A stretch of DNA of 32,000 nucleotides from Megasphaera elsdenii DSM 20460 (GTDB taxonomy: Bacteria; Bacillota; Negativicutes; Veillonellales; Megasphaeraceae). Below, one piece after another: positions 2,149 through 30,795 of this stretch. Location: assembly GCF_003010495.1 (NCBI RefSeq), contig NZ_CP027570.1, positions 900,001 to 932,000 of the forward strand, written 5' to 3'. Each line of letters opens with the position of its first letter. Positions within the stretch are counted from its first letter, which is position 1. Under the pieces are notes generated by a model that was not told the DNA's origin, ran no database searches, and was given only the letters and a program-made list of their open reading frames with translations. The translations under genes were made by a program, and so were the position numbers.

Positions 2149-2183
2149 AAAGGGGCTGTCGCATTCAGCGATAAGCCCCTTTT
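2149..2183 (+). terminator. intrinsic terminator, diverged member of the recurrent GGGCTTGTCGC terminator family
   Basis: AAA-GGGGCTGTCGC-attca-GCGATAAGCCCC-TTTT, 17 nt after the stop at 2132. Confidence 0.7.
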
Positions 2184-2189
2184 GTGATT

Positions 2190-2303
2190 CGTTTGCCGAA
2201 AATTCTCGCAAATGCAAAAATACGCAATGTACAGGATTCAGGCGGGCCGCGGACTGCGTTTTTCATCACGGCAAACGAGCCACGACCCACGGCAAACGAC
2301 GTG
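2190..2303. repeat. CGTTTGCCG/CGGCAAACG heptamer-phased repeat (inverted relative to the copy at 27940-28018)
   Basis: CGTTTGCCG at 2190-2198; its complement CGGCAAACG at 2269-2277 and 2290-2298. Segment 2269-2303 reads CGGCAAA CGAGCCA CGACCCA CGGCAAA CGACGTG. The reverse complement of 2269-2300 matches 27940-27971 at 28 of 32 positions. Confidence 0.6.
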
Positions 2304-3210: not shown

Positions 3211-4476
3211 GTGAAAAATGTGTATCTTACTCAATCAAATGTCATCAGAAATCTTTCCAAAGAAGACTATGCCATGCTGCGAGAGATGTGCCAATACAGC
3301 AATAACCTCTACAACGTGGCTCTCTACAACATCAGGCAATACTATTTCCAAGAGAAGAAGTTCTTGAAATACGAAGAAAATTACCATGTCTGCAAGGAAA
3401 ACGAAAACTACGGTCTGTTGCAGGCTGGCGTTTCTCAGCAGATATTGAAGGTGGCTGACCGCAGTTTCAAGTCATTCTTCAATCTCATAAAAAAGGCAAA
3501 ATCAGGAGAATATCGCTTCAAGGATATCAAAATGCCTCACTATCGGGAAAAGGGCGGCATGTTCAACCTGATTCTCTCCACGAACGCCATAAACGTAAAA
3601 GATGGATTCTTGACGATCCCCATGAGTCGGGGATTTTCTAAACGGCATGGCCGTAAGCCAATCAAAATCCCTTTCCCTGCGAGACTGAAAGAAAAAAGCA
3701 TCAAGGAAGTCCGTATCTGCCCCGTATATAATGGCAGATACTTCAAAATCCAGTATTGCTATCTTCAGGAGAAAGAACCTCAAGACGTTTCACCGGACAA
3801 TGTTCTTGCTATCGACATCGGTCTTGAAAATCTGGCAACTTGCGTGACCAACACCGGGACGGCGTTCATCATGGACGGGCGTAAACTTAAATCAATCAAC
3901 CAGTATTGGAACAAGCAGAAAGCCTACTATCAGGGGATTGCCGACAAACAAGGACAGAAGAAAACGCACAGGCTCTATGCCTTAGCAAGAAAACGTAACA
4001 ATCGGACACAGGACTACCTCCGCAAGGTTGCCCGCTATATCATCAACTACTGTATCGAACACCGTATCGGAACTATCGTCTGTGGTTATAACGGTGACTT
4101 TAAACGTAGTATCAACCTGGGTAGGATAACCAACCAACAGTTTACGCAAATCAGTTTCGGTAATCTGCGTGAAACACTGGAAGGACTTTGCGAGCGTTAC
4201 GGTATGCGATATATCGAACAGGAAGAATCTTACACTTCTCAAGCAAGTTGCTTGGATTTAGACGATATTCCTGTCTATCATCCGGAACAGCCGTATACTG
4301 GCACGTTTAGTGGGAAGCGTATCCACCGTGGCTTGTACCAGTTCGCCGATGGCAGGATGGCCAACGCGGATGTGAATGGAGCATACAACATACTCCGTAA
4401 AAGTAAGCAGAACTTCGATTTCGAGGGACTGTGTAAGGGGCTTTTGGACAGCCCTTTGAGAATAAGGATATCCTGA
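3211..4476 (+). CDS. tnpB: TnpB (OrfB_IS605 family) RNA-guided endonuclease-like protein
   Basis: RuvC-I motif AIDIGLENLAT, then YTSQ, then RuvC-III motif NADVNGAYNILRK. The N-terminal helix LYNVALYNIRQYYF is typical of the family. GTG 3211 overlaps the AGGAGG RBS, so GTG 3220 is better spaced and may be the true start. Confidence 0.9.
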   Translation: MKNVYLTQSNVIRNLSKEDYAMLREMCQYSNNLYNVALYNIRQYYFQEKKFLKYEENYHVCKENENYGLLQAGVSQQILKVADRSFKSFFNLIKKAKSGEYRFKDIKMPHYREKGGMFNLILSTNAINVKDGFLTIPMSRGFSKRHGRKPIKIPFPARLKEKSIKEVRICPVYNGRYFKIQYCYLQEKEPQDVSPDNVLAIDIGLENLATCVTNTGTAFIMDGRKLKSINQYWNKQKAYYQGIADKQGQKKTHRLYALARKRNNRTQDYLRKVARYIINYCIEHRIGTIVCGYNGDFKRSINLGRITNQQFTQISFGNLRETLEGLCERYGMRYIEQEESYTSQASCLDLDDIPVYHPEQPYTGTFSGKRIHRGLYQFADGRMANADVNGAYNILRKSKQNFDFEGLCKGLLDSPLRIRIS

Positions 4477-4571: not shown

Positions 4572-5174
4572 TTGAAGCTTCCGCCAGGTACGGCTATGTC
4601 GGAACAGGAACTGTCGGGCATTTTGAATGTCAGCCGGACGCCGGTACGGGAAGCCTTTATCCGTTTGTCACAAAAGGGACTGCTCGAGATTTTACCGCAG
4701 CGCGGGACCTTCGTGTCCAAGATTCACACGGAACAGCTGGCAGAGTTCCGCTTTTTCCGGGTTACCTTGGAACGGGCCATTATAGAATTGGCCTGTCAGG
4801 CTTTTCCGGATCCGTGGCGGACGAAACTAGAATTTTGCATTTTCGAGCAGGGGAAATTCATTACCTCGAAAGATGCAGAAAACTTTTTCAAGAGTGACAA
4901 TACGTTGCACTCCCTGCTCTATGAAGGTTGCGGCAAGCCCCATATCTGGCAGATCGTCCAGGAATCAAACCTGGATTATGCTCGGGCCCGCGTCCTCAAC
5001 GTCAGCGATGCCGCTGAGCAGATGAACCTTCTTTATGAACAGCATAAAGGCATTGTCGGAGCCATCTTTGCCGGCAATACCGAAATGGCGCAACGCATCA
5101 TGACCGAACACATCAATAAGGTCATGGGCGACGTAGAAGTATTGAAAAAAGAATATCCAGAGTATTTCCAGTAA
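4572..5174 (+). CDS. GntR/FadR-family (FCD domain) transcriptional regulator, 5'-truncated at the IS right end (possible pseudogene)
   Basis: The product starts at KLPPGTAMSEQELSGILNVSRTPVREAFIRLSQKGLLEILPQRGTFV, which is wHTH helices 2-3 plus the wing. The roughly 20-25-aa first helix is missing. The C-terminal helical FCD-like domain is intact. TTG start, no strong SD. Confidence 0.75.
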   Translation: MKLPPGTAMSEQELSGILNVSRTPVREAFIRLSQKGLLEILPQRGTFVSKIHTEQLAEFRFFRVTLERAIIELACQAFPDPWRTKLEFCIFEQGKFITSKDAENFFKSDNTLHSLLYEGCGKPHIWQIVQESNLDYARARVLNVSDAAEQMNLLYEQHKGIVGAIFAGNTEMAQRIMTEHINKVMGDVEVLKKEYPEYFQ

Positions 5175-5180
5175 AGATAG

Positions 5181-5232
5181 TTTGTAGTACAGAGTTCACT
5201 AAAAACTACAAACTGCAAACTTAGTACTCAAA
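5181..5232 (+). repeat. heptamer-phased hairpin element, family 1, shortened copy A
   Basis: TTTGTAG TACAGAG ... ACTAAAA ACTACAA ACTGCAA ACTTAGT ACTCAAA. The right arm is nearly identical to copies B and C. Confidence 0.7.
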
Positions 5233-5264
5233 AAGGGCTTGTCGCATACGCGACAAGCCCTTTT
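5230..5264. terminator. bidirectional intrinsic terminator shared by the convergent gntR-like and lacI-like genes
   Basis: AAAAA-GGGCTTGTCGC-atac-GCGACAAGCCC-TTTT. The lacI-family stop lies at 5266-5268 on the other strand. Confidence 0.8.
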
Positions 5265-9501: not shown

Positions 9502-10992
9502 ATGAACGTATTCCAAATCCACCCTCATGATAATGTCGCCGTAGCTGTCGACGCCGTTGCCCAAGGCAGCGTCGTCACGGCAGGCGGCAAGACCTTTACG
9601 GTCTGCCAGGATATCCCGGCCGGGCATAAAGTGGCTTTGCAGCCCATTGCCAAAGGCGAAGACGTCATCAAGTACGGCTTCCCCATCGGGACGGCCAAAG
9701 TGGATATTCCTGTCGGCGCCTGGGTCCACACGCAGAATGTCCAAAGTAAACTCGGTGATTTACTTCACTATACCTACGAACCGGAAAAGGCGGATCGCTC
9801 TCCCTGGAAATGTGAAAAAAAATACGAATTTTTCGGCTATAAGAGGACAGATGGCAGTGCCGGCATCCGCAACGAAGTCTGGATCATCCCGACCGTCGGT
9901 TGTGTCAACAACATTGCCCGGGCCATTGAAACGGCTTCGCAAAACTATAAAACAGAAAATATCGATGGAATCTATGCCTATAGTCATCCCCACGGCTGCT
10001 CGCAATTAGGCGATGACCAGGTCCATACACAAAAGATACTAAGTGGCTTGATTCACAATCCCAATGCCGGCGCCGTCCTGGTCCTGAGCCTGGGCTGTGA
10101 AAACAACCAGGTCAGCTTGATGAAAGACGTCATCGGCGATTATGATCCGGACCGGGTCAAATTCCTGGTCTGCCAGGATGTGGAAGATGAAATCGAAGCC
10201 GGGACGGCCATTGTCAAGGAACTTTGCGCCTATGCCAGCCAGTTCCATCGCCAGCCCTGCGACGCTTCGCTGCTGACGATTGGCCTGAAGTGCGGCGGTT
10301 CCGATGGTTTTTCAGGCATTACCGCCAATCCCCTGGTCGGAGAGATTTCCAACCGCCTCATCGCAGCCGGCGGCACGTCGATTTTGACGGAAGTGCCGGA
10401 AATGTTCGGAGCCGAAACGCTGCTCATGAACCGGGCCCGCAACCAGGAAGTCTTTGATAAGACGGTGGGCCTCATCAATCACTTCAAAGAATATTTCATG
10501 AGTTACGGCGAAAAAATCAATGAAAATCCATCGCCAGGCAATAAGGCCGGCGGTATCACGACATTGGAAGATAAGTCCCTGGGCTGTGTTCAGAAAGGTG
10601 GCCGGGCTCTCGTCGAAGATGTCCTGGCCTATGGCGACAGGGCAACGAAGAAAGGCCTCAACCTGCTGCAGGCACCGGGGAACGATTTAGTCGCCTCCAA
10701 TGCCTTAGCCGCTGCCGGAGCCCATATGGTACTGTTTACGACGGGACGGGGCACGCCGTTTGCCTGCCCGGTACCGACGATCAAGATTTCCAGCAATAGC
10801 CACCTGGCCGGATTCAAGCGGAATTGGATCGATTTCAACGCCGGGACCATTGCTGAAGGGGAATCGCGGGAAGCCGCAGCGGACCGCCTTTTCCAATATA
10901 TCCTTGACGTAGCGTCAGGTCGTGTCCATGCGAAATCGGAAGCCTTGGACAAGCACGAACTGGCTATATTTAAAAACGGAGTTACTTTATAA
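9502..10992 (+). CDS. uxaA: altronate dehydratase
   Basis: 496 aa. An N-terminal SAF-like domain (HPHDNVAVAV...) followed by a UxaA/GarD-type C-terminal domain. The start is 4 nt after the uxaB stop. Confidence 0.95.
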   Translation: MNVFQIHPHDNVAVAVDAVAQGSVVTAGGKTFTVCQDIPAGHKVALQPIAKGEDVIKYGFPIGTAKVDIPVGAWVHTQNVQSKLGDLLHYTYEPEKADRSPWKCEKKYEFFGYKRTDGSAGIRNEVWIIPTVGCVNNIARAIETASQNYKTENIDGIYAYSHPHGCSQLGDDQVHTQKILSGLIHNPNAGAVLVLSLGCENNQVSLMKDVIGDYDPDRVKFLVCQDVEDEIEAGTAIVKELCAYASQFHRQPCDASLLTIGLKCGGSDGFSGITANPLVGEISNRLIAAGGTSILTEVPEMFGAETLLMNRARNQEVFDKTVGLINHFKEYFMSYGEKINENPSPGNKAGGITTLEDKSLGCVQKGGRALVEDVLAYGDRATKKGLNLLQAPGNDLVASNALAAAGAHMVLFTTGRGTPFACPVPTIKISSNSHLAGFKRNWIDFNAGTIAEGESREAAADRLFQYILDVASGRVHAKSEALDKHELAIFKNGVTL

Positions 10993-11004
10993 GGAGGGAG
11001 TGCA

Positions 11005-12438
11005 ATGAGCACACAAGAAGGGACGTTGCCGAACAAGAGCGTAACGACTGAAACGGCAGCTTCTAAGGAAGGCCATGTGAAATTATCATGGCGTGAAAAA
11101 ATCTGTTATGGTTTCGGTGACTTTGGCAACGGTTTCATGTTCGACTTAGGCCAGGCATATTTGACGAAATACTGGATCGACGTCTGCACCATTCCGGCAG
11201 CCGCCGTAGCCGGCATCTTCGCCTTTACGAAAATTTTCGATGCTTTCATGGATCCTATCGCCGGGTCCGTCATCGACGGCCGGAAGAATATCGGGCCCCG
11301 CGGCAAGTTCCGCCCGGTCATGATGGCTTCGGCTGTCATCCTGGCCATTTTGACGGTCATTACCTTTACCATGCCGGACTTGTCACCGACGGGTAAGATT
11401 CTCTTTGCCTATGGTGCCTATATGGCCTGGGGCCTCGTTTACTCGTTTACTAACATTCCATATTCGTCCCTGGCCAGCGTCATGACCCGCGATGTCGAAG
11501 AACGAAGTCAGATGGCGACGACTCGTCAGGCCGGTTCTATCGGGGCCCAGCTCATTACCGGCATGGCCTTCGTACCGGTCGTCCTCATGTTCGCATCGCC
11601 TCATGAAGGCTTCTTTGCCGCGTCTATCGTCATGTCCATCATCGGCGTCATCGGCTTTGCTATTTGCTATTTCAACTGCCATGAACATGTTCCGGTCAAG
11701 CGCAATACTCAGAATGAACAGAAAGCGAAATTCTCGGACTACATTAAACTCGTGTTTACTAATAAACCGCTTCTGTGCATCATTTTGATGACCTTGTTTA
11801 CTATTTCGGCCATGAATACGAATAACCAGATGATGATTTTCTTCTGCCAGTATAACTTGGGCCATATGGGTTTACAGCCGATTGTAAACGGTATCATGAT
11901 GGGCTGCTCCGTCGTCGGTATCCTGCTCATTCCCAAACTGGTCAAGATGTTCGGCAAGAAAAAGACGGCCATCGGCGGCCTGCTCATCGGCTGTGCTGCG
12001 GACCTCCTGAACTTCGTCATTCCGACCAATATTTACACTTTCATCATCTTGGTCACCATCGGCTACGTCGCCCTGGCTATTCCGAACGGCGTCACCTGGG
12101 CTTTCGTTTCTGACGTCATCGACTACAGCGAATGGCATAACGGCATCCGTAAAGAAGGCATTACCTATGCGGCTTTCAACTTCTCCCGTAAAATCGCACA
12201 GGCCCTGGCCGCTGTTGTAAGTTCGGGCATCCTGGTCCTGACGGGCTATGTCGCCAATGCCGTCCAGAGTGAAATGACGCTGATGGGCATCAAAGCCGCA
12301 ATGACCTTGTATCCTGGCGTTGCCCTGGGCATTGCCGCTATCATTCTCTATTTCTTCTATGGCCTGACCGACGATAAATTCAAAAAAATCGCCGATGATC
12401 TGAACCATGGTAAGTGGGAACACGGTACGATTGAATAA
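11005..12438 (+). CDS. glycoside-pentoside-hexuronide (GPH):cation symporter family transporter
   Basis: 12-TM protein with the GPH-type N-terminus KICYGFGDFGNGFMFDLGQAYLTKYWIDV. Sits inside the uxa operon. Confidence 0.85.
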   Translation: MSTQEGTLPNKSVTTETAASKEGHVKLSWREKICYGFGDFGNGFMFDLGQAYLTKYWIDVCTIPAAAVAGIFAFTKIFDAFMDPIAGSVIDGRKNIGPRGKFRPVMMASAVILAILTVITFTMPDLSPTGKILFAYGAYMAWGLVYSFTNIPYSSLASVMTRDVEERSQMATTRQAGSIGAQLITGMAFVPVVLMFASPHEGFFAASIVMSIIGVIGFAICYFNCHEHVPVKRNTQNEQKAKFSDYIKLVFTNKPLLCIILMTLFTISAMNTNNQMMIFFCQYNLGHMGLQPIVNGIMMGCSVVGILLIPKLVKMFGKKKTAIGGLLIGCAADLLNFVIPTNIYTFIILVTIGYVALAIPNGVTWAFVSDVIDYSEWHNGIRKEGITYAAFNFSRKIAQALAAVVSSGILVLTGYVANAVQSEMTLMGIKAAMTLYPGVALGIAAIILYFFYGLTDDKFKKIADDLNHGKWEHGTIE

Positions 12439-13837: not shown

Positions 13838-13865
13838 GTAGGGGCGCCCATGTGGGGCGCCCGCC
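13838..13865 (+). repeat. GTAGGGGC-GGGCGCCC hairpin module (intercistronic copy)
   Basis: GTAGGGGCGCCC-atgtg-GGGCGCCCGCC. 8-bp GC stem GGGCGCCC/GGGCGCCC with no T-tract after it. Lies between kdgK and eda. Confidence 0.7.
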
Positions 13866-13894: not shown

Positions 13895-14533
13895 ATGGAT
13901 AAACTTGATGTTGTCAATAAAATTAAAGAAATCGGCATCGTTTCTGTCGTCCGCGGCAAGACCCCGGAAGAAGCGATGATGATGTCCGAAGCCTGCATCA
14001 AAGGCGGCGTCACGGCCATCGAACTGGCCTTCACGACGCCGCGGGCTCATGAAGTCATCGAAGCCCTTTCCAAGAAGTACGCCGACAACCCGGATGTCAT
14101 CATCGGTGCCGGCACGGTCCTCGATGCCATTACGGCCCGCATTGCCATCCTCGCCGGCGCCCAGTTCATCGTATCGCCGGCACTGGACGTGGAAACGATC
14201 AAGCTCTGCAACCGCTACCGCGTCGCCGTCATGCCGGGGACGACGACCCTCAACGGCGTCATTACGGCCTTGGAATACGGCGCTGACGTCGTCAAAATCT
14301 TCCCTGGGGAAATCCTGGGCATGAAAGCCATCAAGGCCATCCACGGCCCCCTGCCGCAGGCTCCGCTCATGCCGACAGGCGGTGTCAACGTCGAAAACGC
14401 CGGCGACTGGATCAAAGCCGGCTGCGTCGCCGTCGGTGCCGGCGGTGCCCTCACCGGTGGCGGCAAGACGGCTGATGAAATCACGGCTACGGCCAAAAAA
14501 TTCATCGCTGCTGTCCAAGCTGCTAGAAAGTAA
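13895..14533 (+). CDS. eda: KDPG / 4-hydroxy-2-oxoglutarate aldolase
   Basis: IELAFTTP, GAGTVL and VKIFPG (Schiff-base Lys context), plus PTGGV. 212 aa. Confidence 0.9.
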   Translation: MDKLDVVNKIKEIGIVSVVRGKTPEEAMMMSEACIKGGVTAIELAFTTPRAHEVIEALSKKYADNPDVIIGAGTVLDAITARIAILAGAQFIVSPALDVETIKLCNRYRVAVMPGTTTLNGVITALEYGADVVKIFPGEILGMKAIKAIHGPLPQAPLMPTGGVNVENAGDWIKAGCVAVGAGGALTGGGKTADEITATAKKFIAAVQAARK

Positions 14534-14550
14534 AAGTTTATAGTACGGAG

Positions 14551-14627
14551 CTTGTAGTTTGTAGAAGATGGCTTTAAGTTTAAAACCATTCACTAAAAAC
14601 TACAAACTGCAAACTTAATACTCAAAA
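14551..14627 (+). repeat. heptamer-phased hairpin element, family 1, copy B
   Basis: Eleven 7-nt words in one register: CTTGTAG TTTGTAG AAGATGG CTTTAAG TTTAAAA CCATTCA CTAAAAA CTACAAA CTGCAAA CTTAATA CTCAAAA. The arms are complementary. Confidence 0.75.
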
Positions 14628-14659
14628 AGGGCTTGTCGTCGTGCGACAAGCCCTTTTTT
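14624..14659 (+). terminator. intrinsic terminator of the uxa-kdgK-eda operon (recurrent stem)
   Basis: AAAAA-GGGCTTGTCG-tcgtg-CGACAAGCCC-TTTTTT. Confidence 0.8.
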
Positions 14660-15714: not shown

Positions 15715-16302
15715 ATGGTACGATCCATCTTTTTCTTCGCCCAATGGCTCATTGCCCGGCGCAGGACCTGGCTCCGTATCCTTACCTGGATTACCCGCTT
15801 CGGCTATTGGCTGTTCATCCTTTATGGCCTGCTTGAGTGGTTCCGGCCGCGGCCGATAGCGGAACAGATTAAACGTCGGAAGACTTTAGTTTACTGCCTG
15901 TTTTCCGTCATCCCGGGATCTTCCGTTTCCTGGGTCATCGGGAAAATCTGGCATCGCCCCCGGCCTTTCGCCTGCGGCGATGCAGCGGCGCTCGTGCCGC
16001 ATAAGGCCAACGCTTCCTTTCCCAGCAACCATTCCATGAACAGCCTGGCCATTTCCCTGATGCTCCTGGCCCGGCGCAATCCCTGGGGGCTGCCGGCCCT
16101 GGTCTGGACAGGCGTCCTGGCCTCGTCGCGGATACTCAGCGGGCTCCATTACGTCAGTGACGTCATCGGCGGCTTCTTCATCGGAGCTGCGGCCAGCCAT
16201 GTCGTTTACCACAGTAAACGCTGTTCACAACTGGCTGATCACATCCTTTACTATTGGCATGTCGGGACTGCCGTAGTAGAGACCTGGTGGCGGAAATGCT
16301 GA
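15715..16302 (+). CDS. PAP2-family phosphatase (undecaprenyl-diphosphatase/phosphatidic acid phosphatase type)
   Basis: The three PAP2 motifs: KIWHRPRP, PSNHS and SRILSGLHYVSDV. Membrane helices. Confidence 0.85.
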   Translation: MVRSIFFFAQWLIARRRTWLRILTWITRFGYWLFILYGLLEWFRPRPIAEQIKRRKTLVYCLFSVIPGSSVSWVIGKIWHRPRPFACGDAAALVPHKANASFPSNHSMNSLAISLMLLARRNPWGLPALVWTGVLASSRILSGLHYVSDVIGGFFIGAAASHVVYHSKRCSQLADHILYYWHVGTAVVETWWRKC

Positions 16303-16312
16303 TGGAACAGAG

Positions 16313-16389
16313 TTTGTAGTTTGCAGACGATGGCTTTAAATTTAAAAACATTCACTACAAACTAAAAACTGCAAACTTAATACTCAAAA
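16313..16389 (+). repeat. heptamer-phased hairpin element, family 1, copy C
   Basis: TTTGTAG TTTGCAG ACGATGG CTTTAAA TTTAAAA ACATTCA CTACAAA CTAAAAA CTGCAAA CTTAATA CTCAAAA. Differs from copy B by 7 substitutions and 1 indel when the terminator is included. Confidence 0.75.
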
Positions 16390-16421
16390 GGGCTTGTCGT
16401 CGTGCGACAAGCCCTTTTTTT
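16386..16421. terminator. bidirectional intrinsic terminator (PAP2 gene / LarA-like gene), recurrent stem
   Basis: AAAA-GGGCTTGTCG-tcgtg-CGACAAGCCC-TTTTTTT. The T-tract overlaps the stop codon of the minus-strand gene. Confidence 0.8.
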
Positions 16422-20250: not shown

Positions 20251-21705
20251 ATGAACGATCAAGAAATCATTGAAGGAGTCATCCATGAATTTGCAGGACT
20301 GGCCAAGCACCCGCGTCCGTCCCACCACGAAAAAGGCGTTAGCGACTACATCGTCAGCCGCCTCCATGAATTGGGCGTAACCGATGTTACACAGGACGAA
20401 GTATATAACGTCATCGCCAATGTCCCCGCCAGCAAGGGCTGCGAAAACTGGCCGCTTACGGTCCTCCAGGGCCATATGGATATGGTCTGCGTCGCCAAAC
20501 CCGGCGTCGACTTCGACCCCTTGACCAGTGAAATCAAACTGGTCCGTGAAGGCAATATCCTCCATGCCGATGGGACCAGCCTCGGTGCCGATGACGGCAT
20601 TGCTGTCGCTTTGTCGCTGTACCTCATCCAGCAGGATATCCAGCATGGCCCGCTGCGTCTCATCTTCACCGTCGATGAAGAAACGGGCATGACCGGGGCC
20701 ACTCACTTGGACCCGAAATACGTCCAGGATGTACAGTACATCATCAACTGCGACTCGGAATATATGGATGTCCTCTGCGTCGGTTCGGCCGGCAGCGTCC
20801 ATACGCATTTCAGCCGTCCTCTCCATTGGCAGGCTGCCAAAGGTAAACAGGCGTTTACTATTACGGCGAAAGACTTTGCCGGCGGCCATTCCGGGGAAAC
20901 CATCAATGACGGCAAGAGCAACGCCATCAAAGCTCTGAGCCTGGCTCTCCGCCGCGTCGCTCAGGCCGGCGTATCCTATGTCCTGGCCTCCATCAGCGGC
21001 GGCGTCGCAGCCAATGCCATTCCGTCGGAAGCATCGGCTGTCATCGTTGTCGACGATGTAAACGCCGGCGAAACGATTAAACAGGTTGTCGGTGAAGAAC
21101 AGGCTGAAATCGCCGAAGTGTACGGCGAAGTCGAAAAGAACGCCCATTTCCTCGTCGAAAGCACCGACGTACCGGCTCAGACCTTCTCGGCTGACGATAC
21201 AAAGAACCTGGTCAGCCTGCTGAACATCCTTCATTGCGGCGTCTTCGCCATGAACCAGATGCTGCCGAAACTGCCGGATTTGTCGGCCAATATCGGCACC
21301 ATCCGTACGGAAGACGACCATGTCGCTATTCAGTACTTCCCCCGTGCTTCGGCCGATGCCCGCCTGCGTGAACTGATGACAACCCTGCCCGTTTACGCTG
21401 AGTTGACAGGCTGTGACATCGAACTGGCTTCGCCGGAACCGGCATGGACAGAAAATCCGCATAGCAAACTCGTTCCCCTCGTTGCCGACGTTTACAAAGA
21501 AGAAGCCGGCAAAGAAGCCCGCATCGAAGCCATGCACGGCGGCCTGGAAACGGGGTACTTCTTCGCTATGAATCCGAAACTGGATATCATCTCCGTAGGG
21601 CCGACGACACACGACATCCACAGCGCCGACGAATCGGTCGAACTCGATACGGTAGCTCTCCTGACCCGCATCGTCGCCAAGACCTTGGGGAAATTAAATA
21701 ATTAG
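20251..21705 (+). CDS. pepD: aminoacyl-histidine (Xaa-His) dipeptidase, M20 family
   Basis: 484 aa. PepD-type N-terminus (EFAGLAKHPRPSHHEKGVSDYI... LQGHMDMVC) and ends consistent with the M20C family. Confidence 0.9.
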   Translation: MNDQEIIEGVIHEFAGLAKHPRPSHHEKGVSDYIVSRLHELGVTDVTQDEVYNVIANVPASKGCENWPLTVLQGHMDMVCVAKPGVDFDPLTSEIKLVREGNILHADGTSLGADDGIAVALSLYLIQQDIQHGPLRLIFTVDEETGMTGATHLDPKYVQDVQYIINCDSEYMDVLCVGSAGSVHTHFSRPLHWQAAKGKQAFTITAKDFAGGHSGETINDGKSNAIKALSLALRRVAQAGVSYVLASISGGVAANAIPSEASAVIVVDDVNAGETIKQVVGEEQAEIAEVYGEVEKNAHFLVESTDVPAQTFSADDTKNLVSLLNILHCGVFAMNQMLPKLPDLSANIGTIRTEDDHVAIQYFPRASADARLRELMTTLPVYAELTGCDIELASPEPAWTENPHSKLVPLVADVYKEEAGKEARIEAMHGGLETGYFFAMNPKLDIISVGPTTHDIHSADESVELDTVALLTRIVAKTLGKLNN

Positions 21706-21778
21706 TGGCTCGTGATTCGTGGCTCGTAGTTCGTAGGGGCTCACTAACCCCTAACCCCTAACCACTAGCCACTTAAAA
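21702..21778 (+). repeat. heptamer-phased hairpin element, family 2 (starts inside the pepD stop codon)
   Basis: TTAGTGG CTCGTGA TTCGTGG CTCGTAG TTCGTAG GGGCTCA CTAACCC CTAACCC CTAACCA CTAGCCA CTTAAAA. AGTGGCT (21704-10) pairs with AGCCACT (21767-73), and TAGGGG pairs with CCCCTA. Confidence 0.75.
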
Positions 21779-21808
21779 CGGCTTGTCGCATATGCGACAA
21801 GCCGTTTT
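21775..21808 (+). terminator. intrinsic terminator of pepD (variant of the recurrent stem)
   Basis: AAAA-CGGCTTGTCGCAT/ATGCGACAAGCCG-TTTT, a perfect 26-nt palindrome. Confidence 0.8.
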
Positions 21809-21874
21809 GTTGTTTTTGCAACAGTTTTATTCGGATATTTTTGCTATAGTATAGGGGAACAAAGGGGGAGTACG

Positions 21875-27937: not shown

Positions 27938-27941
27938 AAGC

Positions 27942-28018
27942 CGTTTGCCGTGGGTCGTTCATCGTTTGCCGTTGAATGCGTGAATTTTTCGGCAAACGCC
28001 AAACGCCAAACGAACCAC
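27942..28018 (+). repeat. heptamer-phased hairpin element, family 3
   Basis: CGTTTGC CGTGGGT CGTTCAT CGTTTGC CGTTGAA TGCGTGA ATTTTTC GGCAAAC GCCAAAC GCCAAAC GAACCAC. CGTTTGCCG (27963-71) pairs with CGGCAAACG (27990-98). Confidence 0.7.
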
Positions 28019-28052
28019 AAAAGTGATGCTGCGGAAGCAGCATCACTTTTTT
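28019..28052 (+). terminator. intrinsic terminator of purL
   Basis: AAAAGTGATGCTGC-ggaa-GCAGCATCACTTTT followed by TT. Confidence 0.8.
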
Positions 28053-29176: not shown

Positions 29177-29212
29177 AAAAAAGGGCTTGTCGCATGACGA
29201 CAAGCCCTTTTT
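29177..29212. terminator. bidirectional intrinsic terminator after rpsR (recurrent stem)
   Basis: AAAAAA-GGGCTTGTCG-catga-CGACAAGCCC-TTTTT. Confidence 0.8.
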
Positions 29213-29299
29213 AAGTTTTAAGTTGAAAGTTTGATGTGGAGGGGACAAAATTTAAAAGCCATCGCCTCAAACGTCATACATCAAACCTCAAACATTTAA
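29213..29299 (-). repeat. heptamer-phased hairpin element, family 1, copy D (opposite orientation, diverged arms)
   Basis: AAGTTTT AAGTTGA AAGTTTG ATGTGGA ... AAACGTC ATACATC AAACCTC AAACATT. The core AAATTTAAAAGCCATC is the reverse complement of the B/C core. AGTTTGATGT (29228-37) pairs with ACATCAAACC (29278-87). Confidence 0.7.
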
Positions 29300-29300
29300 G

Positions 29301-29352
29301 AAAAAGGGACCTCGCATTATGGTATAAACCTTCGTGTGACGTCCCTTTTTTT
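29301..29352. terminator. second terminator-like hairpin
   Basis: AAAAA-GGGACCTCGC...GTGACGTCCC-TTTTTTT. 10-bp stem with one mismatch and one G:U pair; 20-nt loop. Confidence 0.55.
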
Positions 29353-29378
29353 GTAGGGGCGCCACGTGGGGCGCCCGC
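29353..29378 (+). repeat. GTAGGGGC-GGCGCC hairpin module
   Basis: GTAGGGGCGCCACGTGGGGCGCCCGC, near-identical to 13838-13865. Confidence 0.7.
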
Positions 29379-29435
29379 ACCGGAATATGTACGATTTCCC
29401 TGTCAGGGTGCTAGGCGAATCATACAAAGGCCCAA

Positions 29436-29465
29436 CGGGCCGCCCTTTGGGACGGCCCCTACGAA
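29436..29465 (-). repeat. GTAGGGGC hairpin module, variant, minus strand
   Basis: The minus strand reads TTCGTAGGGGCCGTCCCAAAGGGCGGCCCG. It has the same TTCGTAGGGGC junction as 21730-21740. Confidence 0.6.
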
Positions 29466-29486
29466 CAGCTGTCAGCTGACTGCTGA

Positions 29487-29556
29487 CCACGAGCCACGAA
29501 CCACGAACCACTAATCACGAGCCACTAACCACTAACTACTAACCACGAACCACTAA
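29487..29556 (-). repeat. tandem array of ten 7-nt units (family 2) overlapping the guaD 3' end
   Basis: Plus strand: CCACGAG CCACGAA CCACGAA CCACTAA TCACGAG CCACTAA CCACTAA CTACTAA CCACGAA CCACTAA. The minus strand reads TTAGTGG/TTCGTGG-type units. Confidence 0.8.
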
Positions 29557-30795
29557 CTCCCCATCTACATAGCGGGCGATGATGTTGCGGTCGTCGCCGT
29601 CGTAGATGAATTGCTGGAGCTTTTCGAAGGGCGTCCGTTCCAGGCCTTCCATGTCGTCCATGTGGATGACCAAGGCGTCAAAGGCATAGCCCGTTTCAAA
29701 GCTGCCTGTCCGGCCGTAGAAGCGGCCCGGTCCTTTGGTGGCCAAGTACAGGCCTTCACCGATGGTGAGGGCTTTTTCTGTATCGTGCTGCAGGGCATGG
29801 AGCTTCGATATTTCGATGGTCAGGGCAATCTGTTTGTTCATGGCCGGTGTATGGCCGGCGGCGACGTCGCTGGCAATGGTGCAGGTCAAGCCTTGTTCCA
29901 GGTTGCGCCGCAAAGGCATGATGCCGCTGGTCAGGTTAGCATTGGACTGAGCGCAATGGGCCAAGTAAACGCCTTTATTGCCAAGTAAACTTTTTTCTTT
30001 GTCAGACAGATAGATGGCATGGGCCATGATCGTCTTATCTTGCCGCAAGAGGCCGAAAGCGTCGTAAACGTCAGTATACGACGGCAGGTCCGGATGGAGT
30101 TCTTTGACCCAGGCGACTTCATTCCGATTTTCCGACAGATGGGACTGGACGGGCAAGTCGTACTTTTCACAGAGACGCCCAAGGCCGGTCATCAGTTTTT
30201 CCGTTGTCGACGGGACGAAGCGCGGCGTGGCGATGAAGCGGACGCGGTGCAGTTCCTCCTGGCAGCGGACGGTCAATTCTTCCGTGTCGGCCAGGGACTG
30301 GTCTGTATCTTCTAAAAGATAATCCGGTGCATTGCGGTCCATGTTTACTTTGCCGATATAGGCCTTGAAGCCCATGGTTTCTGCCAGTTCCATGAGCTGC
30401 CATGTCGCCTCTTTATGGATGGTCGCAAAGGCAGAGAAACACAAGGTCCCTTCGGCTTTGAGCCGTTCCAGGAACGCTGTGTAAACGCGGCGGGCAAAGA
30501 CAGGGTCGGCAAATTTCCCTTCAGCCGGGAAGGTGTAGTGCTCCAGCCAGGGCAGGAGTTCTTCATCGAAGCCGAGGCCGCGGTTGATATACTGCGGGGC
30601 ATGGATGTGCAAGTCGACAAAGGCCGGGATGATGATGTCCTGGCCGTAGTCAATGACTTTTTCCGCCCCCGCCGATTCGGGCAGGGACGTCGTGAAGCCC
30701 GTTACGATGCCGTTTTCGATATGGGCATATTGATTTTCGCGGATCGTCAATTCCGTCCGCGACGGCGTATAGAGAAAATTTCCTTTAAGGAACAT
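29539..30795 (-). CDS. guaD: guanine deaminase (amidohydrolase superfamily)
   Basis: VDLHIHAPQY, GKVNMDRNAPDYLLEDT, SHLSENRNEVAWVKELHP and a C-terminus ...RYVDGELV track E. coli GuaD as I recall it. Confidence 0.85.
   Translation of the reverse strand: MFLKGNFLYTPSRTELTIRENQYAHIENGIVTGFTTSLPESAGAEKVIDYGQDIIIPAFVDLHIHAPQYINRGLGFDEELLPWLEHYTFPAEGKFADPVFARRVYTAFLERLKAEGTLCFSAFATIHKEATWQLMELAETMGFKAYIGKVNMDRNAPDYLLEDTDQSLADTEELTVRCQEELHRVRFIATPRFVPSTTEKLMTGLGRLCEKYDLPVQSHLSENRNEVAWVKELHPDLPSYTDVYDAFGLLRQDKTIMAHAIYLSDKEKSLLGNKGVYLAHCAQSNANLTSGIMPLRRNLEQGLTCTIASDVAAGHTPAMNKQIALTIEISKLHALQHDTEKALTIGEGLYLATKGPGRFYGRTGSFETGYAFDALVIHMDDMEGLERTPFEKLQQFIYDGDDRNIIARYVDGELVVRG

Follow-up and report, generated by a model that had tools for sequence, protein, structure and literature searches.

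What kind of element is the heptamer-phased hairpin that lies, together with a terminator, directly 3' of the gene eda in Megasphaera elsdenii DSM 20460? It was examined in a window of 32,000 nucleotides (nt), the whole stretch of DNA analysed, where an original prediction had reported four copies (A to D) of such a unit at operon ends, the one behind eda being module B. We suggest that positions 14534-14659 are probably one copy of a high-copy mosaic extragenic terminator cassette, similar to repetitive extragenic palindromic (REP) sequences and bacterial interspersed mosaic elements (BIMEs), which in these searches was found only in M. elsdenii and close relatives. A mobile terminator cassette resembling REPs or miniature inverted-repeat transposable elements (MITEs) was the last alternative offered by the prediction, and it is the one favoured by dispersal, modularity and turnover: members of the family lie at dozens of loci with no relation to one another, and arms, core and terminator are combined in various ways. 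The cassette would serve as an operon-end terminator, and its hairpin part would be repeat DNA, like BIMEs or REP doublets forming hairpins (REPINs), travelling with that terminator. Spread may occur by recombination, gene conversion or single-strand transposition, and the 7-nt phasing would arise as heptamer units are duplicated and deleted. The arm hairpin may add an mRNA-stabilising stem at the 3' end, rather than acting as a sequence-specific riboregulator.

Structure of the module after eda

The gene eda encodes a KHG/KDPG aldolase and ends at 14533 (stop codon 14531-14533). Module B lies directly 3' of it and begins immediately after the stop codon, at 14534, and not at 14551 as had been proposed. 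Its parts are the following:

14534-14550, forward strand: 5' leader AAGTTTATAGTACGGAG, fitting the conserved upstream part of the family, 'TTTATAGT(TTGTAGT)ACGGAG'
14551-14564, forward strand: left arm of class LA1, CTTGTAG TTTGTAG, G/T-rich words ending in GTAG
14565-14592, forward strand: core AAGATGGCTTTAAGTTTAAAACCATTCA, an A+T-rich palindrome of the TTTAAATTTAAA type, the best-conserved part across all arm classes
14593-14627, forward strand: right arm of class RA2, CTAAAAA CTACAAA CTGCAAA CTTAATA CTCAAAA, G-poor, with CT heading each word
14624-14659, forward strand: predicted bidirectional intrinsic terminator, consisting of A5, GGGCTTGTCG, loop TCGTG, CGACAAGCCC and T6

All four copies were found where they had been placed, the neighbouring genes bear out the names given in the prediction, and A, which had been called shortened, is an internally deleted copy. 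The seven substitutions counted between B and C are correct and make the stem weaker, but the single indel is in fact two differences, one additional base in each of the A- and T-runs. As RNA, all four modules form two hairpins, that of the arms and then a G+C-rich one of 15-16 bp, with a T-run at the end. The folding energies are -48.1 kcal/mol for B (z -7.7), -40.9 for C, -40.6 for A and -44.8 for D; the z values of the four range from about -5 to -8.5, and none of 200 shuffles was equally stable. The Rfam search that had been recommended returned nothing at the gathering threshold for the module, so no known family was matched; the only hit with E<1 was MicC, over the terminator (33.6 bits against a threshold of 90, E 0.21). 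By blastn, module B had no match in plasmid and phage collections.

The G+C hairpins of the modules were the top matches of a terminator scan, located 3' of eda, PAP2, gntR, rpsR/guaD and pepD. Their stems of 15-16 bp (including A/U extensions), loops of 3-6 nt and runs of T5-T7 are those of intrinsic terminators, and the pairing is kept through compensatory change among 47 copies. From its composition, the G+C-rich hairpin with its A- and T-runs is predicted to be a bidirectional intrinsic terminator. Loop variants occur between otherwise identical copies, such as CACGA (L022:6650-6672) and its reverse complement TCGTG (L053:1942-1964), and module C copies in L004 and L148 have the loop TCGTG versus CATATG or ATATG. 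These differences suggest hairpin inversion or gene conversion between copies.

Dispersal, polarity and taxonomic range

An identical Eda protein is encoded by the M. elsdenii DSM 20460 chromosome HE576794 and by many gut and rumen assemblies. A scan for the terminator pattern GGCTTGTCG-N4-8-CGACAAGCC, with one genome per species, matched at least 120 stretches. Among the matches listed, 35 of 120 belong to Megasphaera, from at least 5 species and often with several per contig, while those from outside the genus occur singly, in phyla unrelated to it. When metagenomes were scanned with the RA2 word, at least 118 stretches with at least 125 matches were found, the word being present in at least 45 distinct flanking contexts. 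At least 54 unique full-length LA1-core-RA2 modules were recovered there, about 90 nt long and nearly identical at unrelated loci. Copies beyond the four of the prediction were thus found.

In 266 kb of Megasphaera DNA, 45 family terminators were found, both flanks being available for 43. A G-poor array with CT every 7 nt, on one side only and reading into the hairpin, accompanies 31 of these 43, and the opposite polarity was found in none; a polarity of 31:0 was reached by 0.08% of shuffles. The order relative to the gene varies, since both gene-array-terminator and gene-terminator-array occur.

Of the GuaD homologues, those below 80% identity were rejected as outgroups since they proved to be Lachnospiraceae- and Flavonifractor-like, and use was restricted to the hits at 91%, 81% and 70%. 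We compared 13-21 kb of syntenic or neighbouring DNA from each of three relatives. Locus L144 (86% Eda identity, same gene order) has no lag-7 arrays, GTAGGGG heads or family terminators in 20.6 kb, and the same absence was observed in the 13.3 kb of L139 (81% GuaD identity, same gene order). Both have their own plain terminator, unrelated to the family, at each operon end examined. In Veillonella (L145), only unrelated simple terminators were found, with no REP heads or family terminators and one weak lag-7 stretch. Because these three loci carry plain terminators without the repeats, the system appears to be young and limited to a sub-clade among the relatives sampled, where it would have replaced older terminators. 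In the literature on Megasphaera repeats, terminators, heptamers and REPs, we found no prior description.

Some matches of the terminator pattern are chance matches in Bacteroidota (L016, L018, L029, L035, L039, L116 and L126). They lie just 3' of short open reading frames (ORFs) with TGGTGGTGG (Trp-Trp-Trp) and 5' of apparent tryptophan-synthesis genes, and look like trp leader-peptide attenuators with the stem GGCTTGTCG...CGACAAGCC. In L144, two incomplete, decayed copies of the 3' end of eda lie in the 1.2-kb spacer that follows the gene (10640-11835); each has a terminator of its own, and they seem to be remnants of a tandem duplication.

Pairing of the arms and covariation

An alignment of 20 core-containing modules (A1) has as conserved features the left word GTTTG.AG, the core TT.AA.TTT and a C or CT at 7-nt steps in the right arm. 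The arms fall into the following classes:

LA1, left arm: TTTGTAG, pairs with RA2
LA2, left arm: TTTGATG, pairs with RA3
LA3, left arm: TTAGTGG, pairs with RA1
RA1, right arm: CTAACNN/CTAGCCA, pairs with LA3
RA2, right arm: CTACAAA/CTGCAAA, pairs with LA1
RA3, right arm: CATCAAA/CTTCAAA, pairs with LA2

Modules B and C combine LA1 with RA2, and D combines LA2 with RA3. The commonest type in other species, LA1 with RA1, and the single copy with LA2 and RA1 have arms unable to pair; a TTTGTAG left arm with an unpairable CTAACNN right arm is present in 10 of the 20 aligned relatives. The hairpin part of such unmatched types has energies from -9 to -15 kcal/mol, versus -17 to -49 in the matched ones. 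When the structure of B is applied across A1, 61.6% of cells are paired, versus 60.6% in shuffles. In addition, D pairs heptamer columns other than those paired in B, so that the difference between the two is not positional covariation.

A second alignment (A3) contained 47 LA1-core-RA2 copies from the RA2-word metagenome scan, the right arm being partly fixed by the search word:

Arm helix, 16 pairs: 0 changed on both sides (8 invariant, 4 one-sided, 4 only broken), 92% of cells paired
Core helix, 9 pairs: 2 changed on both sides, 80.5% of cells paired
Terminator helix, 16 pairs: 8 changed on both sides, 94% of cells paired

The covariation score of the whole structure was reached by none of 500 shuffles. 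This signal comes from the terminator, where 8 of 16 pairs have changed on both sides, against none of 16 in the arms; left-arm changes only disrupt pairing. The terminator stems observed include GGGCTTGTCG, GAGGCTGTC, GGCGCTGTC, GAGACTGTC, AGAGCTATCG and GGGGATGCCG. The covariation proposed as a check is thus present in the terminator and absent from the arm helix: the terminator hairpin is under structural selection, and the arm hairpin shows no compensatory evolution, though palindromic modules recur. The claim that compensatory arm substitutions between B and D mark a selected RNA structure is not borne out, since these are two cassette classes, half of the aligned relatives are unpairable, no arm pair covaries and the B-versus-C changes weaken the stem.

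The prediction had also considered a HutP-type binding site, from UAG triplets at 7-nt spacing. This likeness to the HutP site of the Bacillus hut operon, with the triplets 5' of the terminator, holds only for B. The HutP site has two clusters of three UAG (NAG) triplets, 4 nt apart, in the 5' leader of a single operon, whereas the Megasphaera modules have 0-2 UAG (2 in B, 1 in C, none in D) and are numerous, lie at 3' ends and occur in both orientations, which does not support such a site.

A near-perfect 80-nt LA2-core-RA3 palindrome (-48.7 kcal/mol) was found at L044:6591-6684 with no adjacent family terminator, indicating that the hairpin module can exist alone.

Turnover at orthologous sites

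Comparison of orthologous sites revealed replacement of whole modules. L022 and L053 have flanks about 99% identical and a wholly different segment between the terminators, one with a (CCCCTAR)n array and the other with a B-type hairpin, and the terminator loop is inverted. A full module in L032 corresponds to only 'CTACGAACCACTTAAAAG' 5' of the same terminator in L086. In L142 (95% Eda identity), the B site has an identical terminator and a different palindromic module, CTAGTGG CTAGTGA TTAGTGG TTAGTGG, core, CTAACCA CTAACTG CTAGCCA CTAACAA (-65.8 kcal/mol, z -8.9). Its A site has arms unable to pair (z -0.9) and its C site has no hairpin. In L137 (GuaD 91% identical), the guaD-rpsR spacer contains words of the type seen in array G (see below) and two REPs, with no D module. 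The search for presence/absence polymorphism that had been advised is therefore positive (L032 versus L086, the C site of L142, L137 without D, and the L022/L053 replacement). Some contigs start or stop inside a module, e.g. L010, L032, L038 and L238.

Seven-nucleotide phasing and change of units

Stretches of 28 nt with at least 71% self-identity at lag 7 cover 135 positions of the window, versus 0-21 at lags 5, 6 and 8-11, and all of them are inside intergenic modules. The 266 kb of Megasphaera DNA contain 71 lag-7 arrays, all intergenic, versus 0-11 at lags 4, 5, 8, 10 and 11. The 7-nt periodicity is thus well above that of other lags in both data sets, as had been expected. The proposed single register of 11 words has a chance of about 1 in 7 of arising by accident, and it is not general, because in module E (see below) the right-arm words are the rotated complement of the left-arm words.

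Among 8 strains, E contains (CCCTAAC)1-4 and (CACTAGC)1-3, giving spacers of 164, 171, 185 or 199 nt. The guaD-rpsR spacer measures 363, 370, 384 or 398 nt in 9 strains, the changes being whole words or word pairs in array G. Tandem 7-nt units varying between strains, as expected for a heptanucleotide simple-sequence repeat with variable number of tandem repeats (VNTR), were therefore found at E and G. Modules B, C and D are phased, yet they show no length change in 8-9 strains. In B-type paralogues, among the matches listed, the right arm has 32 nt (40 copies), 33 nt (8) or 25 nt (4), and the left arm 21 nt (20 copies) or 14 nt (6).

The differences of 7 or 14 nt in heptamer number among M. 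elsdenii strains (21743-21775 and 29467-29561; L001-L007 and L129-L136) are possible VNTR typing markers. TTAGGGG/CTAGGGG arrays with at least 10 units occur at L022:6556-6647, L065:569-645, L068:4353-4466 and L077:1-29; they are telomere-like and their G-rich strand could form G-quadruplexes. Three possible roles of the words were discarded. As Chi sites, TTAGTGG/CTCGTGG words would have to accommodate G-rich arrays on both strands within 8 kb (E on the forward and G on the reverse strand). Stop codons in all frames of both strands (CTAA/CTAG every 7 nt) hold for CTAR-type arms and not for B and C (CTACAAA, CTGCAAA), and were taken as a by-product. For a Rho-utilisation site in the C/A-rich, G-poor arm, the 7-nt spacing has no known link with Rho.

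GTAG-tagged REPs in the same spacers

The spacers that contain the modules also contain GTAG-tagged REPs of the form GTAG, GGGNNNNCC, loop, GGNNNNCCC, with a 9-bp G+C stem and ACGTG, AAA or TGTNAA as loop. In 266 kb of Megasphaera DNA, 39 of them were found (loci L010-L127). The window has three:

13838-13864, forward strand: GTAG-tagged REP in the spacer between kdgK and eda, within the operon
29353-29376, forward strand: GTAG-tagged REP, GTAG GGGCGCC ACGTG GGGCGCCC
29434-29462, reverse strand: GTAG-tagged REP, GTAG GGGCCGTCCC AAA GGGCGGCCC

About one quarter of the 39 REPs are preceded by an array whose last word supplies the GTAG (...TTCGTGG TTCGTAG-GGGCC). In the metagenomic copies L150, L181 and L192, an inverted REP (...CCCCTAC) runs directly into RA2 words. 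The outer stem and the centre of one REP variant, GGGCTTGCACGTGGCAAGCCC, are also those of the terminator GGGCTTG-TCG-CACGTG-CGA-CAAGCCC. The terminator hairpin is usually preceded by AAAAA, and one copy has GTAG directly 5' (L065:4372). A REP of this kind is a G+C-rich imperfect palindrome of 20-40 bp, so the arm hairpin of B, with 77 nt rich in A+T, is not itself one. We found no description of REPs in the genus Megasphaera in the literature, and a survey paper on GTAG-REPs has no mention of Firmicutes or Megasphaera. In E. coli, TnpAREP requires both GTAG and the REP, cuts single strands between C and T, CTAC being among the sites cut, and is able to join BIMEs in tandem through strand transfer (PMC3333891). 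This cutting preference makes the origin of CT-headed words by a Y1 transposase a testable idea.

Origin and role of the cassette

Several points weigh against the reading of module B as a copy of a mosaic terminator cassette. The copy numbers and taxonomic range from both collection scans are lower bounds, and the absence of two-sided changes among the 16 arm pairs comes from an alignment in which the search word lowered the power for arm covariation. At the B site of the sister species represented by L142, an entirely different arm pair again pairs perfectly. Different pairing arms at this site in two species are also the outcome expected of hairpin selection, a point in favour of the prediction; palindromy is thus a property that recurs in the module and is exchanged in one piece. 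The strict polarity, invariant CT phase and conserved core may reflect a further function, and the termination role itself is deduced from sequence features. No mobilising enzyme was identified in the sampled DNA. The tblastn searches with IS200 TnpA and E. coli RayT queries, in about 300 kb of sampled loci, returned only noise and are uninformative. No target-site duplication was noticed in the flanks viewed, where no dedicated search was made.

The arm hairpin could instead be a selected RNA of the 3' untranslated region, either a stem blocking 3' exonucleases or a periodic platform for an RNA-binding protein, ring-shaped or of the cold-shock type (like HutP, TRAP or Csp), that modulates the terminator. 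The very stable hairpins (z -5 to -9), the pairing of both arm sets found at one site in two species, the strict polarity, the CT every 7 nt and the conserved core are all compatible with this. However, half of the aligned relatives have unpairable arms, no arm pair changed on both sides in 47 copies, and UAG is not conserved among B (2), C (1) and D (none). The modules occur in both orientations to the nearest gene end, often as gene-terminator-array, in dozens to hundreds of copies, and they may be missing altogether, as the hairpin is from the L142 C site and D from the guaD-rpsR spacer of L137; we thus consider a selected RNA unlikely. A REP-associated Y1 (HUH) transposase that recognises GTAG hairpins and cuts single-stranded DNA between C and T would explain other features, since strand transfer between CT sites 7 nt apart could edit words and spread cassettes. 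GTAG-REPs are numerous and border on arrays ending in a word with GTAG, the right-arm words are headed by CT and often by CTAC, the complement of GTAG, inverted REPs lead straight into RA2 words in L150, L181 and L192, and cutting between C and T with tandem BIME assembly has a precedent in E. coli TnpAREP (PMC3333891). Nevertheless, an array is missing from three quarters of the REPs, arrays are polarised differently towards terminators than towards REP heads, polymerase slippage alone accounts for the changes of 7 nt in near-perfect arrays, and no gene for a REP-associated tyrosine transposase (RAYT) was seen in the sampled DNA, which is a weak test. This mechanism seems to us quite unlikely.

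Two other explanations are highly improbable. A MITE of the classical kind, bounded by terminal inverted repeats and moved in trans by a DDE transposase, would have arms resembling inverted repeats, a size of about 80-200 bp, many copies and presence/absence differences, all of which are observed. On the other hand, the arms have an internal periodicity and differ in length, unrelated arms are found in many copies, the units are always against the terminator hairpin in one polarity, target-site duplications were not noticed (without a systematic search), and the sole transposase-like gene in the window is an IS605-type TnpB. Independent growth of a microsatellite at each terminator, by slippage only and without cassette dispersal, is just as hard to sustain. 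It agrees with the differences of 7 nt between strains and with heptanucleotide repeats being common and often just 3' of ORFs (PMC4679880, PMC4692102), but not with at least 54 unique, nearly identical 90-nt modules at unrelated loci, a conserved non-repetitive core, and whole-module replacement between genomes with flanks about 99% identical. It is contradicted for modules of the B, C and D type, and could hold for pure arrays like G. Going beyond the cassette itself, we regard it as a doubtful speculation that in a REP-type system a Y1 (HUH) or other single-strand activity writes and erases the CT-headed 7-nt words next to hairpins, making hypervariable, exchangeable terminator cassettes that took the place of ancestral terminators throughout a clade, or that the CT array is a landing pad for a single-strand-binding protein tuning termination genome-wide.

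If the cassette interpretation is true, most operon ends in M. elsdenii and close relatives would be set by exchangeable repeat cassettes and not by locus-specific terminators. It would also be a natural replacement of terminators by repeat DNA, dated by syntenic relatives without the system. The 7-nt CT phasing beside GTAG-REPs would offer a handle on the mosaic diversification of REPs and BIMEs and on the frequency of heptanucleotide repeats in bacterial intergenic DNA. In practice, the arrays break short-read assemblies and could be used for strain typing, and, for an organism of use in rumen and gut research, the cassettes are predicted to be compact terminators that act in both directions.

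Similarity to known repeat systems

The Megasphaera modules are like the REP, BIME and REPIN elements of Enterobacteria, Pseudomonas and Stenotrophomonas in being high-copy extragenic palindromes at 3' ends, made of few blocks in mosaic combinations. Their building blocks, which are combined and ordered in various ways, comprise three classes of left arm and three of right arm, the core, two types of terminator and REPs. REP, BIME and REPIN elements can serve as terminators or mRNA stabilisers, which is a further likeness, and so are the true GTAG-REPs in the same spacers and the resemblance of the family terminator stem to one REP variant. Unlike in REPs and BIMEs, 7-nt words make up an A+T-rich arm hairpin of about 77 nt, the G+C hairpin with A- and T-runs has the form of a canonical intrinsic terminator, and the host is a Negativicute. 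The family is best described as a mosaic cassette, with no prior description found, that extends REP/BIME-like repeats to heptamer-phased modules fused to terminators. The pneumococcal BOX and Neisseria Correia elements are also modular and intergenic, with a variable number of internal subunits and stable hairpins, and affect transcript ends. They are not known to share sequence with the Megasphaera modules, where the subunit is 7 nt instead of tens of nt and where neither a terminal inverted repeat nor a duplication signature was noticed, no dedicated search for duplications having been made.

Among the long simple repeats of many prokaryotes, those with a 7-nt unit are the commonest, often just 3' of ORFs (PMC4679880, PMC4692102). 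Intergenic heptamers with no function assigned include (GGGAATC)n/(GGGANTN)n in Xanthomonas, GGGGAYT in Nostoc and TAACTGA in Beggiatoaceae and cyanobacteria (PMC4692102, PMC4679880). Like those of Xanthomonas, Nostoc and Beggiatoaceae, the Megasphaera heptamers have fixed and free positions, are almost wholly intergenic, lie near the end of the upstream ORF and vary in length. They differ in that their words (YTNGNNG / CTNNNNN) form an inverted pair around a conserved core, in a unit of 90-200 nt that is dispersed whole and fused in one polarity to a terminator.

Other units in the window

The count of four copies was too low. A lag-7 scan and a repeat finder revealed further units with the same architecture and different words, so that 6 or 7 of about 9 operon ends in the window bear a unit, and none of the 3 divergent promoter regions does. 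Besides module B and the REPs, the window contains:

2150-2300, forward strand: terminator variant GGGGCTGTCGCATTCAGCGATAAGCCCC with G-rich words and CGGCAAA/CGAGCCA words, 3' of a 2-hydroxyacid dehydrogenase gene
5175-5264, forward strand: module A, without the second left arm and core, RA2 and terminator with loop CATACG, between convergent GntR-family and LacI-family regulator genes
16303-16421, forward strand: module C, LA1-core-RA2 and the same terminator as B, between a convergent PAP2 gene and a nickel-pincer isomerase (LarA-like) gene
21701-21809, forward strand: module E, 3' of the M20 dipeptidase gene (pepD)
27940-28050, forward strand: module F, CGTTTGC-type words, loop, GCAAACG/CCAAACG words and an unrelated terminator (GTGATGCTGC...GCAGCATCAC), 3' of purL
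29177-29299, reverse strand: module D, LA2/RA3, TTTGAGG TTTGATG ... CATCAAA CTTTCAA, core GATGGCTTTTAAATTT, with a family terminator shared with rpsR
29301-29352, reverse strand: long-stem terminator-like hairpin GGGAC..CACGAAGGTTT.T.CCAT.ATGCGAG..GTCCC with T-run
29467-29561, reverse strand: array G, 14 tandem heptamers (TTAGTGG/TTCGTGG/CTCGTGG...), from the guaD stop codon into the REP head TTCGTAG-GGGCC

The GntR-family regulator gene ends at 5174, directly before module A, and the PAP2 phosphatase gene at 16302, directly before module C. Module D, whose retained core and altered arms were confirmed as described, is unchanged in 9 strains; the guanine deaminase gene (guaD) is on the reverse strand and ends at 29539, and the S6, SSB and S18 genes are upstream of D. 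The left words of E are TTAGTGG CTCGTGA TTCGTGG CTCGTAG TTCGTAG, followed by a GGGG..CCCC mini-hairpin, and its right words are CTAACCC CTAACCC CTAACCA CTAGCCA, followed by the terminator CGGCTTGTCGCATATGCGACAAGCCG. The CGGCAAA/CGAGCCA words of the 2150-2300 unit are complementary to the left arm of F.

The long-stem hairpin is a second conserved structure of about 50 nt, GGGGCTGTCGCA-CGAAGGTTTCTGCCATCA-TGCGAGACCCC with a T-run, present at 29301-29352, at about 2310-2365 and at many other loci (e.g. L062, L065, L082, L092 and L110). It resembles a longer form of the family terminator and is mostly 5' of the heptamer module, so that full-length units have two tandem terminators. A small ORF within it (ATGATGGCAGAA...) was rejected, as it is not kept in the window copy (ATG GTA TAA). 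The IS605-type TnpB is encoded at 3211-4476 on the forward strand, with OrfB_IS605 and Cas12f1-like TNB domains and without an adjacent TnpA. Strains vary at this position 5' of the GntR-family gene, having the TnpB of the window, another OrfB-like gene or a second aldolase gene.

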